The position numbers and the translations under genes are program-made. From Candidatus Komeilibacteria bacterium (lineage in GTDB: Bacteria; Patescibacteriota; Patescibacteriia; UBA1558; UBA10009): DNA of 59,763 nucleotides. The stretch spans positions 1 through 59,763 of the forward strand of contig JAPLWM010000005.1 of the NCBI GenBank assembly GCA_026396575.1. The letters are read 5' to 3'. The notes under the pieces are model-generated. The model was not told where the DNA came from, made no database searches, and was given only the letters and a program-made list of their open reading frames with translations. Positions within the stretch are counted from its first letter, which is position 1. The number at the start of each line of letters is the position of its first letter. Shown piece after piece: positions 9,784-25,347 of this stretch.

Positions 9784-10284
9784 ATGCAAAATTTAAGCAA
9801 TAATTATGTTTTTATTGACAGTCAGAATCTTAATTTATCAATACGATCCCTGGGCTGGAAATTGGATTTTAAGCGTTTTCGAAAATATCTGTGGGATAAA
9901 TATAAAATAACCAAAGCTTTTTTGTTTATCGGTTATTTGCCTAAATATAAAAATCTATATAATCATTTAAGGCAAAGCGGCTATATTTTAATATTTAAAC
10001 CGGTTTTAGGCGAACAAGCTGGCTATATTAAAGGCAATATTGACGCTGAATTGGTTTTACAGACCATGATAGAATATTGGAATTTTAATCAAGCAATTAT
10101 TATTACCGGCGACGGTGATTTTTATTGCTTAATCCGTTATTTAAACAGGAATAATAAATTACTAAAACTATTGGTGCCAGATGTGCGCAAATATTCGGGC
10201 TTACTTAAAAGATTCGCTCCCAATAAAATAGATTTTATGAATACTTTAAAAAATAAGATAGAGTATAAACAAAACCGCCCGTAA
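9784..10284 (+). CDS. NYN/LabA (DUF88) PIN-fold protein
   Basis: FIDSQNL, KGNIDAELV, ITGDGDF acidic motifs. Confidence 0.88.
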   Translation: MQNLSNNYVFIDSQNLNLSIRSLGWKLDFKRFRKYLWDKYKITKAFLFIGYLPKYKNLYNHLRQSGYILIFKPVLGEQAGYIKGNIDAELVLQTMIEYWNFNQAIIITGDGDFYCLIRYLNRNNKLLKLLVPDVRKYSGLLKRFAPNKIDFMNTLKNKIEYKQNRP

Positions 10285-10390
10285 AGGCGGCTTTGTTAAG
10301 GCAGGCAATTGTATAAGGACTATCCCTTATAAACCTCCTGCCGTGGTGATTATGTTTGAATATTAACAAAATCAACTTCCTTTGTAAATA

Positions 10391-10419
10391 TTGACAAAAA
10401 TCAATAGATATGGTATATT
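10391..10419 (+). promoter_or_regulatory. Sigma70 promoter of the DGR target gene
   Basis: TTGACA-17 nt-TATATT with TG extension. Confidence 0.65.
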
Positions 10420-10457
10420 GATTTATTAAATTGTTCTTTGTTATTATTTTGTTTAAT

Positions 10458-10552
10458 ATTAGCCACGGTTTTTAGCTTACTTGTCCTCCGAAGTCCCGCG
10501 AAGCTGGACGAAGGTGGATTTATTAAAAATTAGGTTAAAAACCGTGGCTAAT
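10458..10552. repeat. Inverted repeat enclosing a GC-rich REP-like hairpin in the leader of the DGR target gene
   Basis: attagccacggttttta / taaaaaccgtggctaat; inner tcctccgaagtcccgcgaagctggacgaaggtgga. Confidence 0.75.
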
Positions 10553-10640
10553 GGTTAGTTCACGGCAACATTCCGTTTGGGGCGTTTCCTAGGTCCTAGG
10601 GTGGAAACGTGAGGAGCGGATATTTTTTAAAGAGGTCAAA

Positions 10641-11342
10641 ATGGGAAAGCCGAATACATCGGCGATTGTCGCTGCTTCTGGACATATGTCCAGTATTTGG
10701 ATTAGTTTAGTCAGGGGTGTCGCCAAGCATGGCGGTACGGACGAAGACATTATCCGACTGAACACTCCGGAAGGAGAGGAGACTTTGGATCGGGTCGCTG
10801 AACTGATCGCCAATGCCAACAGGAAAGCGGTCGAGCCAATTCAACTGCAACCGTTACTCAAGCTTCTCGGCACCGTTTCTATTCCGAAAACGACCGAGCC
10901 ATTCGTGGTTGCCGACCATTTCAAGAAGGGCAACGCCGACGGCGTCGCTATCTCAATCATCTGGGAAAATTTTCAGACCTTGTGTGGCGGCGTGGTAGAG
11001 GAGCCGATCAAAGAGGCGATTGAACTTCGCTACTACAAACTCCTTCGTCCGGAAGATGACGAGCCAATCATCGTTGAACTCAGCGGTGAAGCAACGGTTG
11101 AAACATTTTTCGCCGCGATTTGGGAGTCGCTGAAACTCCAGAAGAACGGTGGAAAGGGCAAGCTTTTAACAACCGACGGAGCGAATATTTTCTATATTCG
11201 CGTAGGCGGCGTTTTGCTGGCGGTTCGCGTCCGCTGGGATTACTTCGGCTGGCGTGCCAGCGCCGACTCGGTGGAGTACCCGCACTGGTGGAGTGCCGGC
11301 TTCCGGGTCTTTTCCGGCAATTCAGTATCTTTGGCGGCATAG
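10641..11342 (+). CDS. DGR target protein with C-terminal variable region (probably CLec-like fold)
   Basis: 3' end aligns to the TR at 11672-11787; ends GFRVFSGNS like DGR VRs; SD-like gagg; no signal peptide. Confidence 0.88.
   Translation: MGKPNTSAIVAASGHMSSIWISLVRGVAKHGGTDEDIIRLNTPEGEETLDRVAELIANANRKAVEPIQLQPLLKLLGTVSIPKTTEPFVVADHFKKGNADGVAISIIWENFQTLCGGVVEEPIKEAIELRYYKLLRPEDDEPIIVELSGEATVETFFAAIWESLKLQKNGGKGKLLTTDGANIFYIRVGGVLLAVRVRWDYFGWRASADSVEYPHWWSAGFRVFSGNSVSLAA
11205..11320 (+). repeat. DGR variable repeat (VR)
   Basis: 116-bp ungapped match to the TR; 21 mismatches, 18 at TR adenines. Confidence 0.93.
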
Positions 11343-11373
11343 AACTTCCAGTTCTTTGTCCCTTGGATACCCA

Positions 11374-11420
11374 GACCCTCTGACAGTTTCGCGAGAGATT
11401 GTCAGAGGGTCGCTTTTTTA
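11374..11420 (+). terminator. Hairpin 3' of the VR (terminator and/or DGR target-recognition cruciform)
   Basis: gaccctctgaca..GCGA loop..tgtcagagggtc followed by a T-run. Confidence 0.8.
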
Positions 11421-11433
11421 TCTCAAAGTTTTT

Positions 11434-11442
11434 TGCTATAAT
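11434..11442 (+). promoter_or_regulatory. Extended -10 promoter, candidate for the TR RNA
   Basis: TGCTATAAT immediately after the target-gene terminator. Confidence 0.55.
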
Positions 11443-11671
11443 ATTTACGAAATCATTTTCTGCGGAACGGCTACGGCTTTTCCGCCATGGTTTTAGAAAA
11501 TTTTAAATCAGATTCGCGTCGGGCACGCCTTACACGAGAGCGTTTAAAATTTTTCTTTTAAAAAAGACAAGAATTGGCGCTTAAAATTGGCGGACTTTTA
11601 GGTCCCAAATCAGATACAGTCCATTTGAGCATTCAAAGGGCAGTGGCCTGGATGGTTTTTAGCGCGATACT

Positions 11672-11787
11672 GGCGGCGTTTTGCTGGCGGTTAACGTCAA
11701 CTGGAATAACAACGGCTGGAACGTCAACGCCAACTCGGTGAAGAACCCGAACAGGTGGAATGCCGGCCACCGGGTCTTTTCCGGCAA
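11672..11787 (+). repeat. DGR template repeat (TR)
   Basis: AAC/AAT-rich frame (VNVNWNNNGWNVNANSVKNPNRWNAGHRVFSG) matching the VR except mainly at adenines. Confidence 0.93.
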
Positions 11788-11807
11788 CTGTTGTTTTTCT
11801 CCCGCTT

Positions 11808-12055
11808 TTAACGAGCGGGAGTTTTGCTTAACAGGCCTTTTTTCCAACCGCCCAGCATGCGGCCTATTTCTTGCAGTTTAGACGACAGTTCAAGGTATTT
11901 TTCAGCGGGGATTAATTTATTTTCCCAGGCAATTTGTAAAAAGAGCTTTAAAACATCAAGGCGGGTGATGGCTTTGCTTAACATTATTATTTTTTGATCA
12001 ACTGGGAGATAGGAAGAGATGAAGCTTAATTCAATCATTTCCAAAAACATTAGAT
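11808..12055 (-). pseudogene. avd: Avd-like four-helix-bundle DGR accessory protein, 5'-truncated
   Basis: AITRLDVLKLFLQIAWE..KYLELSSKLQEIGRMLGGW is Avd-like; upstream of about 12055 the frame no longer resembles Avd. Confidence 0.75.
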
Positions 12056-12243
12056 AATTTATTATCGGCCTGGCCGTCAAATATCTCCTAATGATCTGTC
12101 TCTGGTGGAACTGGCACATTTGCGCTGGCAGGCCGTTAAAGACCGCTCTAATGCCAGGTCTGCCGTCTAAAACGACAGCCTTGATATGGAAAACACCTTA
12201 TTCTAAATGATTTTTGCCGAGCGAATAACTCCTAAAGGCGCGC

Positions 12244-12272
12244 TTGATTTTATGTTTTTTAGCTGTTATAAT
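12244..12272 (+). promoter_or_regulatory. Promoter of tRNA-Val
   Basis: TTGATT-17 nt-TATAAT with TG extension. Confidence 0.65.
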
Positions 12273-12305
12273 TAGCATAATTTTGCGGAAAATACGGGGT
12301 TAGAT

Positions 12306-12382
12306 GGGCAATTAGCTCAGCTGGTTAGAGCGCTGCATTCACATTGCAGAGGTCGCAGGTTCGATTCCTGCATTGCCCACCA
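12306..12382 (+). tRNA. tRNA-Val(CAC)
   Basis: Acceptor GGGCAAT/ATTGCCC, anticodon stem CTGCA/TGCAG with loop TTCACAT, GGTTCGATTCC T-arm, encoded CCA. Confidence 0.96.
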
Positions 12383-12420
12383 CAGCGGGCAAATTAAATT
12401 TACAGGTTTAATTTTAATTT

Positions 12421-24400: not shown

Positions 24401-25347
24401 ATTACGGCAATGAGTGGATCAGTCCGCCCGACCACCAGGGCTGGTATTTATTAAAGAACCGCTTAGTGACCAATCCTGATCGCCGGAGCAGGCCTAATAC
24501 TCCGGAAAACGGCCAGTGGATCCGTTCTTATGGCGGAGCGGCGGATTTTTACGTGGACGAAGTAACCATAGCCACGGCCGGCGGCAATTGCGGTTATGAC
24601 AAAGAAACCTGTTGGAATCCGCAAATCAACAACGGCCAGGGATCTTTTGCCTGCGACGGCGATTCTTATTTTTATTCCTATCAAACTTTAGGCCCGAGCA
24701 ATTATTCTTTATCGGCTAAAATGGAAACTACGGCCGATTGGCGTCCAGCTGAAACTTTGGATCGGCATTTAAATTTAAGTACCGATTTGGTGAAGGGCTG
24801 TACAAAAGAAGTTTTTGGCGCTTATTGCGGCGATGGCCAGGTTCAAGGCGGGGAACTGTGCGAACCGGGCATGTCTAAAAATTTATGCAACGCCGCTTTT
24901 CCTTGGTACGCGCCGGTTAATTCAAGCTGCCAAGCCGCGGGATCGGCTAATCAATGCCAGTGGTTTAATCCTTTAACCGACGTCACTAACGACTGCAATG
25001 GCAAAAGCAATGCTCAATGTTGCGGCGGCTATTGCGGCGACGGCATTTTAAACACCGTGGCCGGCGGTTACCGTTTAAGCGTTAACGAGCAATGCGACGC
25101 TTCAGTTAAAGGCGCTGAAGATGGTTTTTCCAATGGCCACATCAATGGCAGTTCTCAAACTAATCAGTATGCCTGCAGCGCGGGCTGCCGGGATATCGGC
25201 GGCTGGTGCGGCGACGGTTTGGTGGAAGAACAGTATGGCGAAGAGTGCGATGGCAGCGCCATCAATTGGGTTTGCGATGATAATGACACTCCAGAATGTA
25301 ATGGTTGTAAGGTTACTTGTCCTAATGGCGGCGGCCATCACAAGTAA
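18031..25347 (+). CDS. Giant (2438 aa) pilin-anchored surface protein with Ig/IPT-TIG repeats, Asn-rich linker, pilin-like helix, CBM-like domain and Cys-rich repeats
   Basis: Same N-terminal VirB2-like module; IPT motifs (P.SGPVGQYVYIYGHGFG); NPGFEAG CBM-like start; CGDG..E.CD repeats. Confidence 0.8.
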   Translation: MNLKPKTKIIFLALLVLALGILIVPQFVSAQASLGLENAGSTGLGTRDLKDLITLIVRIFLGFLGLIAVSLILYGGFTWMTAAGEAEKIEKAKKILINAVIGLVIILSAYGIVMFVVSKFGGATGGNVNVNVNENGGGGGGGFEQNIFRVTGIQPSGQLRIRNVVVQVSFNKEINQELINQDGTLTNQQGILVERPDANGQYQSVQGVFAIAPNNQRRVIFTPADNCPEPHRDLHCFAYDADNNNLNSYRVTVVSDPATSLKSVGGLAVTCQDNSCQGQFIVGPNLDLENPRVHLVEAINRAGDHLALRNGLVLSIDELYQLLAAATDDGGITGVDFYVAGRLLDSAIPQGAPPLEFSASASWPTVDLQPQTFELSARAYDIAFRESALDTVSVVIRPAHCFNGQLDNNLGETNIDCGGECGACGGELCGNVVAEQCQQPNNQACASGVCDNQSCRCADLPQIREMSPDNAAPGNWVTIFGQHFGAIKGTVKVGGREAAVVAELNNCQGTWQDDQIVIELPAGLEQGNRQAQVITAQSLASNFTDFLVNDVSRPAICFMFPREGGQDQGFGIIGKRFGDQNATRDVYFGSPQNAISATNQTWLSVANREIANSKVPNLTAGQTLVRIKVNGQDSNALNFKVLPSANQQMAISDFSPKSGPVGQYVYIYGHGFGSYQANQSRVKFSTDVLGSFDFPAECLADNGFWNDTRIIVKVPAGSITGPITVVNQNGQTAVSAGNFNFQENAALTPGLCSLHPQEGAIGSTFDVAGEYFTNANLYLGNLRIQASPDNEGKHFTGVAVPEGAVSGPMTVKKGEAISNALDFAVTGGQAPGHNQVSDYYQWQFTTCANCLVPQVVENGSCQAAMASPSPLKNSQNNFSDAVISVTFNTTMKQELFQLGQTAVIKACGQADQPAACQAVNLNGNFTFGEAGANQQFFTLTLASPLSQNTWYQITLQDLRSAVENLPMNGPYSWQFKTRADNNRCVISRVQVNPAERTVAADNPLMLGQRLRYQSAGLNGENCNVCPGNFNWTWSSSDQSNAAIDQTSKVSSSWLEAKHLTSQTAQITAAATILGQQKSGTADLDIVPFDPGAIKGQAIITYQPTGDNVCTNALAQVQFNLPLSVDSISEANFEILKYNADCPNGCSVAAHLFSNQDRNIVNLQPLDNQGRFNGQANYGIKVHGGAGGVKTASGEILSEAGCAQGLTWAGGACSWQFTTQANACAVKTIQVYPTAASINIGDKQGWQATAVAENNQPLSDEIQNWHSLNSDVADAAVVQGNSHLAISTGLSEGTAKIAAGIDQTSGSAELEVKKVPQGPQVLSSQPVGDNVCRNALIQINFDQVIDPQTIATSTLKVQYISTEAKPGCEEIIAKASSFNQSLLSKTLIGRLVNWLAGNLAGSLIKSVSAADLTKTYFCPLAGDWARDISQGMSQLKFVLKQALPPISDIKVTVKGGADGVKADNLPLNGNNLNGAGDFVYTFKTRGDVCTLSTVTLMADPLNNKKDWTFTTSFDNPTDNSGNKFDSINDADKKFTASGFSATGESLISIPGVYEWAWSWNSADQTIAQVQTPWDNFAVTRAQNKNGQTDITVIAGFPDWYQQPALAASALAKVDICENRWNPVGDRNPDYRFIDQDFNFSLSYCRDFGAAGQADDLPALEMPLPVNQREVRNVNGGSAIDTLLREYLLPVPTTGDVIGIRIYSNLTHLSPTEWYQSNIKVKGQPIAATVDGYQAIQDGRTTYVAAANAVPQELALNSVSPSWLGQLWHKLLSYFNHSAIAKVLASTININLNLNQNTNSSTNTNSSANTNSSTNNNTNTNPNLNLNQNTNSSTNTNSSTNNNNNSNSNGNSNVNNSSNTFVNTDANGNNNANTFYNNVNFNNLVNQTPQENQLQYNFNAGNYRLVNTQYKAQRIQSGYTNIYLFSYNQNADPKTQELLKRLMEKWQFNVNIDNPALKAKLQHDVIRLADLNRMSRSLDSYQSSHNGQYPRLLAGSFISGMTTSKWPSWNQGLGSALGIGLPNDPINKFNACIECQEPQLLNPGFEAGQANWHLEEPGKIYDNYNVENTITPQFIKAGSESLHFNVNGADSGISQLISLQTSTTYEMSAWVYINSGRVDLTFWGDDYGNEWISPPDHQGWYLLKNRLVTNPDRRSRPNTPENGQWIRSYGGAADFYVDEVTIATAGGNCGYDKETCWNPQINNGQGSFACDGDSYFYSYQTLGPSNYSLSAKMETTADWRPAETLDRHLNLSTDLVKGCTKEVFGAYCGDGQVQGGELCEPGMSKNLCNAAFPWYAPVNSSCQAAGSANQCQWFNPLTDVTNDCNGKSNAQCCGGYCGDGILNTVAGGYRLSVNEQCDASVKGAEDGFSNGHINGSSQTNQYACSAGCRDIGGWCGDGLVEEQYGEECDGSAINWVCDDNDTPECNGCKVTCPNGGGHHK
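23385..23720 (+). repeat. Asn/Thr/Ser low-complexity tract with a 35-bp direct repeat
   Basis: aatcaaaataccaatagttccaccaacactaattc at 23407-23441 and 23503-23537. Confidence 0.85.

Follow-up and report, generated by a model that had tools for sequence, protein, structure and literature searches.

The prototype diversity-generating retroelement (DGR), that of Bordetella phage BPP-1, is laid out as mtd with its variable repeat (VR), avd, the template repeat (TR), a spacer and brt. Here we describe a DGR cassette in the 59,763-nt contig JAPLWM010000005.1 of a Candidatus Komeilibacteria bacterium (assembly GCA_026396575.1); this whole stretch of DNA is called the window throughout. The cassette resembles that of BPP-1 in its adenine-specific TR/VR pair, in the position of the VR at the 3' end of the target open reading frame (ORF), in its Avd accessory protein, and in having, downstream of the VR, a GC-rich hairpin whose loop is 4 nt long. 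It differs in gene order and strands, the avd gene of window-type cassettes being convergent and their reverse transcriptase (RT) gene divergent. Furthermore, the TR RNA of the window is a separate transcription unit with a structured part of about 225 nt located 5' of the TR, its hairpin stands 53 nt after the VR, behind an array of 8-nt spacing, and, unlike BPP-1, the window has no RT and a truncated Avd. A further likeness is that the TR is embedded in a structured RNA with a stem-loop just downstream, as described for BPP-1 (10.1101/2023.10.23.563531). As set out below, the window locus is most likely a recently crippled DGR.

The DGRs of Patescibacteria, or candidate phyla radiation (CPR), as these reports describe them (clade 2, Roux et al. 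2021, PMC8144416; the "CPR set", Wu et al. 2017, PMC5758913), resemble the window cassette in their hosts, which have small genomes, in their chromosomal location and in targets that lack a known domain. However, the surveys start from the RT gene, and therefore RT-less cassettes like that of the window were not collected under the search designs that these reports give; remote targets were missed in one of them (PMC8144416). In Thiohalocapsa PB-PSB1, a multi-DGR genome, mobile elements were found to interrupt RT genes or to take their place (Dore et al. 2024, PMC10907252). For the incomplete loci of this bacterium, the same report raises both service in trans and relics, and describes intact variants coexisting in the population and one such target that is invariant. 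Transposon-degraded, possibly trans-served DGR loci are already published (PMC10907252), and the window is a further transposon-degraded locus with the trans-or-relic question in common, in a host of another phylum with a genome of roughly 1 Mb. It also differs in that the published trans VRs match the TR of another locus, whereas the window VR matches its own TR only. In the literature searched, as far as the retrieved texts extend, we found no proof of a heterologous RT serving a locus's own TR RNA. Taken singly, the locus is an ordinary outcome, a DGR RT lost to mobile-element damage, which is a process known from another bacterium. What makes it of value is the configuration, namely three TR-RNA genes, three unrelated target families and only one intact RT-Avd pair in one small genome. 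Because the strain is present in existing lake metagenomes and a metatranscriptome, this configuration makes the template specificity of RT-Avd and the persistence of non-autonomous TR-plus-target modules directly testable.

The element is identified by the target gene and its two repeats:

10641-11342, plus strand: DGR target gene of 233 amino acids, belonging to a large protein family that has no name; ATG preceded by AGAGG at a distance of 7 nt
11205-11320, plus strand: VR, target codons 189 to 227; the hypervariable stretch of the target among its homologs
11672-11787, plus strand: TR, with 28 adenines; VR-frame codons 11 AAC, 2 AAT, AAG, AGG and CAC

An ungapped alignment of the VR with the TR covers 116 nt and has 21 mismatches, 18 of which fall at TR adenines. 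Thus, 18 of the 28 TR adenines are changed versus 3 of the 88 other positions (Fisher exact test, p = 2.3e-11). This re-alignment reproduced the adenine bias reported in the original prediction, which had been made from the letters of the window, and its statement that all 14 internal adenine-containing TR codons are altered in the VR was borne out by both sequence and alignment. The three remaining mismatches are C>T, T>C and C>T, and the final 22 nt of the two repeats are identical. In a self-BLAST of the whole assembly, the VR and the TR were each other's only partner. The VR lies at the 3' end of a protein-coding target, and the TR, which is AAC-rich in the VR frame, lies outside this gene in a non-coding RNA unit; the 3' stretch that the VR shares with the TR is followed by a predicted hairpin. 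Missing at the locus are a DGR-clade RT and an intact Avd, the latter being an accessory protein of many but not all DGRs. Overall, the window locus is a genuine DGR cassette of a definable Patescibacteria type, and the mismatch pattern shows that adenine-mutagenic reverse transcription of its own TR produced the VR sequence at some time in the past.

To define this cassette type, we relied on a survey of related loci comprising 80 of the 96 target relatives confirmed in one-genome-per-species contigs (identity to homologs, 35 to 64%). These relatives are mostly metagenome-assembled genomes of Patescibacteria groups, with some from other phyla, and their TR/VR pairs were pre-filtered for an adenine bias of at least 75%. 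An adenine-biased TR/VR pair was found in 27 of the 80 loci, with the TR at most 1 kb downstream of the VR in 26 of them. Most often, target(+)-VR is followed by a spacer of about 260 to 380 nt and then by TR(+), avd(-) and RT(+). An RT match was present in 24 of the 27 TR/VR-bearing loci, usually as an avd(-)/RT(+) pair right after the TR. At finer resolution, the conserved layout (26/80) consists of the target with its VR, an 8-nt repeat array, a GACCC..GGGTC hairpin, a TGnTATAAT promoter, a leader of about 225 nt, the TR, a CUCC..GGAG stem-loop, avd(-) and RT(+). The window copy is complete up to the middle of avd and is devoid of the 5' part of avd and of the whole RT. It encodes a target protein of the same family and has a structured leader directly 5' of the TR, and the divergent avd(-)/RT(+) pair after the TR stem-loop is not there. 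The three non-adenine mismatches of the window compare with 0 to 5 in the RT-linked cassettes, 2 of 24 of which have at least 3; as a clock, this count is therefore non-discriminating. For alignments A3 to A5, we left out loci with divergent leaders (L023, L046, L056, L075), poorly alignable loci (L065, L087) and L077, whose gene order places it outside the cassette set; RT-less or cut loci (the window, L029, L076, L083) were deliberately excluded. L078 was left out of A6 for an in-frame stop.

Two elements follow the VR:

11321-11373, plus strand: array of TTGA/TTGG/CAGA-type motifs that recur about every 8 nt from the VR to the hairpin; candidate VR-side recognition element
11374-11411, plus strand: GC-rich hairpin with a GACCC...GGGTC base and a GCGA loop, with a T run behind it; target-gene terminator and likely DGR target-site hairpin

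Behind the VRs of the 27 cassettes, the array motif was observed 44 times versus 6.2 ± 2.5 in shuffles. TTGA/CTTTGA-like motifs also stand behind both VRs of a second cassette of the same genome (on contig C19, see below), and the array motif is absent after all three TRs of the genome. The array may mark a VR as a target. The hairpin, predicted from the start to be GNRA capped, proved to have 17 pairs and, folded as DNA, an energy of -14 kcal/mol (z = -5.8). In most of the 27 cassettes, a hairpin lies about 44 to 67 nt after the VR, its stem being mostly GACCC..GGGTC.

The TR belongs to an RNA gene of its own, with the following parts:

11434-11442, plus strand: extended -10 box TGcTATAAT of the TR-RNA gene, read from the sequence; no -35 match
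11448-11671, plus strand: structured leader of the TR RNA, about 225 nt, six helices
11799-11821, plus strand: stem-loop CUCCCGC...GCGGGAG then UUUU, 11 nt after the TR (z = -6.5); terminator of the TR RNA and putative positional counterpart of the Avd-binding stem-loop

The TG.TAtA.T columns of the -10 box are conserved in the family alignment, and the TR RNA is predicted to run from about 11448 to about 11825. For the leader, we built two covariance models from 17 RT-linked loci, the window being excluded: R1 for the 5' half and R2 for the 3' half. Both matched the window over their full length, R1 at 11448-11554 with 100.7 bits and R2 at 11556-11672 with 101.3 bits, and the training sequences themselves score 65 to 114 and 62 to 124 bits, respectively. 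RNAalifold applied to the 17 RT-linked leaders gave 44 pairs in six helices, 34 of them with a compensatory change, and 96% of the cells paired; none of 500 shuffles scored as high, and slid controls reached at most 15 pairs. The window leader keeps 30 of 32 invariant and all 22 near-invariant columns. Its two altered invariant columns form one U-A pair that is now C-G, i.e., a compensated change.

The RT-1 to RT-19 motifs sit near RT genes, and some have been speculated to act in DGRs (Weinberg et al. 2017, PMC5737381). In the window leader, the first hairpin and the CAUG and A-rich stretches that follow it align to RT-9 (RF03080) at 11460-11578, but with 29.7 bits this match is below the gathering score of 46.1, and RT-9 was found neither in 12 other family loci at the gathering score nor in 9 at E <= 1. 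We therefore dropped the assignment to RT-9, and, as far as tested, the leader represents an RNA family that is not in Rfam 15. As for the stem-loop after the TR, in most of the 25 cassettes listed a stem-loop, mostly CUCC..GGAG-UUUU, is found 5 to 12 nt after the TR. Putative Avd-binding stem-loops just downstream of the TR were reported in 207 of 278 DGRs, CPR included (10.1101/2023.10.23.563531), and by analogy the window stem-loop fits these. The covarying leader RNA family of about 225 nt, the post-TR stem-loop and the 8-nt array specific to VR flanks are all items that RT-anchored DGR surveys would miss.

Beyond the TR, the cassette breaks off within avd:

11808-12119, minus strand: chimeric ORF of 103 amino acids; C-terminal ~80 residues are Avd helices 2 to 4, first ~20 residues are transposase derived, junction at about 12050-12090
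12060-12233, minus strand: internal fragment (174 nt) of an IS256-family (Zn-binding variant) transposase with one TAA inside, marking the point at which the cassette lost its RT and the avd 5' end
12306-12382, plus strand: tRNA-Val(CAC), the first ordinary chromosomal gene past the scar, with a promoter-like site at 12244-12272; housekeeping genes come after it

The avd remnant seen in the original prediction was confirmed in that the chimeric ORF matches the C-terminal part of Avd models only: positions 52 to 106 of 107 of Pfam bAvd (38.5 bits, below the cut-off of 40) and positions 37 to 104 of 104 of NCBIfam DivGenRetAVD (44.3 bits, below 80). It also matches the PHROG entry "Avd protein of DGR". 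Avd helix 1 and the native avd start are missing from the window, so that three quarters of avd, at its 3' side, remain, and DNA homology to complete family cassettes stops at 12049-12077. The transposase scar matches NCBIfam NF048019 with 55.6 bits (E = 1.8e-15) and is the genome's only match to this profile. Because it covers profile positions 126 to 183 of 304, contains a TAA and does not reach the curated cut-off of 150, the scar is a fragment and not a gene. Pfam Transposase_mut had no match in the scar or elsewhere in the genome. Two independent contigs, from X1 (3417 nt) and X4 (2572 nt), span the avd remnant, the scar and the tRNA gene with 0 differences, which establishes that the junction is real and not an assembly artefact. 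Since an IS256-family fragment lies at the breakpoint and the avd 5' end and the RT are gone, the RT was most likely lost through an insertion followed by deletions: an IS256-type element would have inserted in or beside avd/RT, and later deletions would have taken away most of it together with the RT and the avd 5' end.

Such decay is common in this cassette type. Besides the window, two loci with sufficient flank to tell are RT-less. In L029, the target, a VR/TR pair (17 of 17 mismatches at adenines), the leader (79 and 102 bits) and a full 148-residue Avd are followed by a housekeeping gene in the place of the RT. L076 has a VR/TR pair with 21 of 23 mismatches at adenines and a leader scoring 107 and 104 bits; tblastn detected neither Avd nor RT there, and its TR is not followed by a stem-loop. 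A further cassette, L083, is cut by the contig end. Later stages of decay are seen at six loci, where leader-RNA or RT remnants stand beside targets without an adjacent TR/VR pair (L037, L038, L044, L060, L069, L078). In the taxonomic family of the window, RVT_1 exceeded its cut-off in 4 of 11 genomes, and three relatives have target homologs; the one relative with a target homolog that is a single contig showed no RVT_1 or bAvd match. The two genomes of L029 and L076 (G061 and G062) have DGR-type RTs elsewhere, the RT-less TR/VR cassette of the window type being accompanied by a complete DGR at another place in the genome. A tie between RT-less cassettes and genomes with another RT is nevertheless uninformative, because the 3 of 3 RT-less TR/VR cassettes with such an RT compare with a background in which, of 42 genomes with a target homolog that stands without an adjacent full RT or TR/VR pair, 30 likewise have RVT_1 over the cut-off.

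We then looked at the rest of the genome, for which the original prediction had proposed a search for an RT, an intact avd and further VRs. The assembly (995,563 bases in 40 contigs, 43% G+C, rated 97% complete) holds three DGR cassettes with three unrelated target families: that of the window and those on contigs C19 and C3. RVT_1 matched twice in the whole assembly, on C19 and C29, that is, on other contigs only, in line with the claim that the window has no RT. Of the three cassettes, one has an intact RT, one an RT split by an insertion sequence (IS), and one has its RT deleted. The C19 RT (359 amino acids, RVT_1 80 bits) is intact, with visible LGNLTSQ and YTDD motifs, which we take to be DGR hallmarks. 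The C19 Avd is likewise intact (116 amino acids, bAvd 62.5 bits). The C19 TR lies at 24970-25089 on the minus strand and has two VRs, at C19:25552-25674 and C19:28111-28218; in one of them 12 of 13 mismatches fall at adenines, in the other 18 of 19. Its RNA forms a unit of its own on the strand opposite the RT, at a distance of 1.8 kb, and has a -10-like box and a terminator. The C3 cassette consists of a TR, a VR at C3:1320-1443 (14 of 14 mismatches at adenines), an intact-looking Avd and the RT N terminus; the RT C terminus opens C29. An IS3-family element splits this RT at ...KGTH|RAV... and is found at C3:1-141 and C29:1-141. It has orfA/orfB and inverted ends TGGCATGCACCC, and the ends of the two contigs show a duplication of 3 bp (CAC); the element is present in full at C9:40527-41736. 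Since further copies occur at several contig ends, many breaks in the assembly are probably due to this element. At C6:61881-62128, we also noticed an Avd-like sequence divided between two frames (bAvd positions 8 to 51 and 66 to 107), which may be the relic of a fourth and older DGR or else a four-helix-bundle gene with no relation to DGRs.

Whether the VR is still rewritten was examined on assembled contigs, in which rare variants are invisible; moreover, the samples may not be independent. Six DNA runs (X1 to X6; four samples, two studies) contain 100% of the sampled 31-mers of 10300-12400. The VR-internal bins (11223-11364) have exactly the mean depth of a single spanning contig, 30.8 in X4 and 8.73 in X1, and therefore no further contig at least 80% alike was aligned at the VR. 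The TR and avd bins carry extra contigs; because those listed (records 18 to 24) differ from the window by about 12 to 22%, they come from other organisms or elements. No VR variant was found in the contigs of the two studies or in the protein collection, where the 90% cluster of the target has one other member (2 Logan contigs), identical at 233 of 233 residues. The protein collection can capture VR variation, since in a pair of relatives from different sources (P0005 and P0006) 8 of 205 residues differ, all in the first half of the VR; this pair is likely a snapshot of partial VR rewriting. Look-ups in the same collection for the other cassettes returned a cluster of 1 member for C19 target 1 and a cluster of 2 members (lengths 227 and 192) for the C3 target, with no variants recorded; C19 target 2 was not found under the two starts tried. 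Run X7 has no cover over 11180-11693, at a low depth of 3 to 4 from which no conclusion was drawn, and a metagenome scan with the single target protein found no relative. Because contigs hide rare variants and the samples are possibly related, invariance of the VR is weakly shown. An RNA library from the same sample as X4 yielded one contig of 195 nt with 0 differences on 11496-11690, i.e., the leader and the first 19 nt of the TR; the bins of the target ORF had no cover in this run. As it is a single contig at depth 2.9, it is a weak hint of leader transcription.

Taken together, these data point, with moderate confidence, to a recently crippled element as the most likely state of the locus: the cassette would no longer diversify, and its VR would be a frozen allele. 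Without a cognate RT and with a truncated Avd, diversification would stop and the VR would stay as it was last written. The loss would be recent enough for the RNA gene and the avd remnant to show no decay. In favor of this reading are the IS256 scar in place of the avd 5' part and the RT, the lack of any VR variant in any assembly, the leader or RT remnants beside TR/VR-less targets elsewhere, and the IS3-split RT of the second DGR. In addition, the one intact RT of the genome is heterologous, its sequence placing it in a different sub-type from that of the window cassette. The C19 RT has a median identity of 45% (33 to 47%) to 23 full-length window-type RTs, versus a median of 58% among those 23. 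An RT tree (FastTree, midpoint-rooted, no supports read), set aside in favor of these identities, puts it on a long branch beside L031 and L087. The original prediction had left the choice between a satellite that borrows RT and Avd in trans and a crippled element; its identification of a DGR TR/VR pair, of an avd remnant and of the absence of an RT from the window stands, and the evidence leans to the crippled element because of the IS scar, the missing VR variants and the heterologous C19 RT.

Several points nevertheless weigh against a frozen VR. All cis elements are intact, unlike those of a long-dead element: the leader scores inside the range of the RT-linked training sequences, its columns are kept with the sole altered invariant pair compensated (U-A to C-G), both hairpins agree with the family consensus, and the avd remnant has no stop or frameshift. 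The three non-adenine mismatches are at the high end of the range seen in RT-linked cassettes, yet inside it. An RNA-library contig lies on the TR leader, and the genome holds an intact C19 RT-Avd that already works on a TR RNA gene 1.8 kb away and whose VR flanks share the 8-nt array and the hairpin with the window. RT-less TR/VR cassettes recur in two other genomes with an RT elsewhere, and contigs cannot show rare variants.

The alternative that best accommodates these points is a trans-served satellite, in which the C19 RT-Avd would bind the window TR RNA, make mutagenised cDNA and rewrite the window VR at least occasionally. We regard this as possible but rather doubtful. It would account for the fully intact cis elements with their compensated leader pair and for the RNA contig, and the C19 RT and Avd are both intact. 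Furthermore, since the C19 TR RNA is itself a separate unit opposite the RT strand, the C19 RT works on a free-standing RNA anyway. The C19 leader (C19:25087-25249), which abuts its TR, matches R2 at the expected place with 24.2 bits (E = 0.0011 in 9 kb, 0.12 genome-wide) and keeps the CGGCUAAGG hairpin loop and the AAUAAAAUUCAG and CGGUG motifs. The array and hairpin common to the window and C19 VR flanks, the pairing of an RT-less cassette with a complete DGR in G061 and G062, and the published proposal that incomplete DGR loci use an RT and/or a TR in trans (PMC10907252) argue in the same direction. On the other hand, the score of the C19 leader compares with about 100 bits for window-type leaders on R2, its matches to R1 are sub-threshold only (at most 8.2 bits, E >= 0.13), and the stem-loop after the C19 TR differs in sequence. 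With 45% against a family median of 58%, the C19 RT is distant from window-type RTs, and the prototype ribonucleoprotein is described as having many essential RNA-protein contacts (10.1101/2023.10.23.563531), while DGR parts are reported to coevolve largely as a cassette (PMC5758913). No VR variant appeared in any assembly, the co-occurrence of RTs is uninformative given its background, and the IS scar together with the IS-split second RT looks like erosion and not design. It seems unlikely to us that the locus is a working satellite kept under selection after the loss of its enzyme and rewritten by the heterologous C19 RT-Avd. If this were true, a single intact RT in a genome of 1 Mb would serve three different TR RNAs together with three target families unrelated to one another, and the RT-less cassettes of L029 and L076 would be further cases.

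An improbable alternative is a population polymorphism, in which rare cells with an intact avd-RT locus coexist with the dominant deleted version and any diversification takes place in those cells. Such coexistence has been reported for transposon-degraded DGR loci seen with long reads (PMC10907252), and contigs drop rare variants. However, among the joints listed there is only one, a related-element contig (depth 4.9) that skips 89 nt of the leader, and none of those listed joins the avd remnant to other sequence. The extra TR and avd contigs listed come, as said, from other organisms or elements, and the metagenome scan with the target protein gave no relative. Finally, the idea that the repeats are an ordinary degenerate duplication with a chance adenine bias, for which the absence of an RT from the window is the sole point in favor, is refuted by the adenine statistic (p = 2.3e-11) and by the presence of the whole conserved architecture, with a leader RNA of about 100 bits per model, the Avd remnant and the hairpins, and has a negligible probability.

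Having favored the crippled element with a frozen VR, we finally considered the protein that the VR belongs to. A word-indexed search gave 8 homologs of the target, and a wider search gave 4186 cluster representatives at E <= 0.001, of which 1128 remained at E <= 1e-30. No family assignment was obtained from Pfam, NCBIfam, PHROG or PADLOC, and none of 35 members of the target family had a Pfam family at E <= 0.01. The survey thus ties the target to a large family, of 4186 cluster representatives, without any Pfam model. A profile search against PDB sequences returned rows at chance level only (E about 0.6), and the structural neighbours in the Atlas were unnamed clusters only. The GFRV-like end of the VR presumably resembles the VRs of C-type lectin (CLec) targets. 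By a hydropathy script only, the maximal 19-residue Kyte-Doolittle mean is 1.25, with no transmembrane-like segment and no hydrophobic N terminus. This last result is the one that bears on the suggestion, made in the original prediction, that the target lacks a signal peptide and may be a cytoplasmic hypervariable binder. Among the relatives, tandem target domains occur in P0013, a protein of 926 residues with 5 matched stretches, and in P0014, of 379 residues with 2.

Upstream of the target ORF, one further feature was noted:

10391-10419, plus strand: promoter-like site (TTGACA-17-TATATT) ahead of the target gene, proposed solely from its agreement with the consensus at 11 of 12 positions

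The promoter region (10385-10472) is 82% identical to C19:19323-19407. The 5' untranslated region of about 220 nt holds a long hairpin at 10458-10552, and an RNA-library run gave low cover on 10371-10512. In base composition, the target gene (53% G+C) and the TR (58%) stand above the genome (43%). Directly upstream of the cassette, at 9784-10284, lies a gene with an NYN domain (LabA-like nuclease; Pfam 44.4 bits, PADLOC NYN 30.5 bits).

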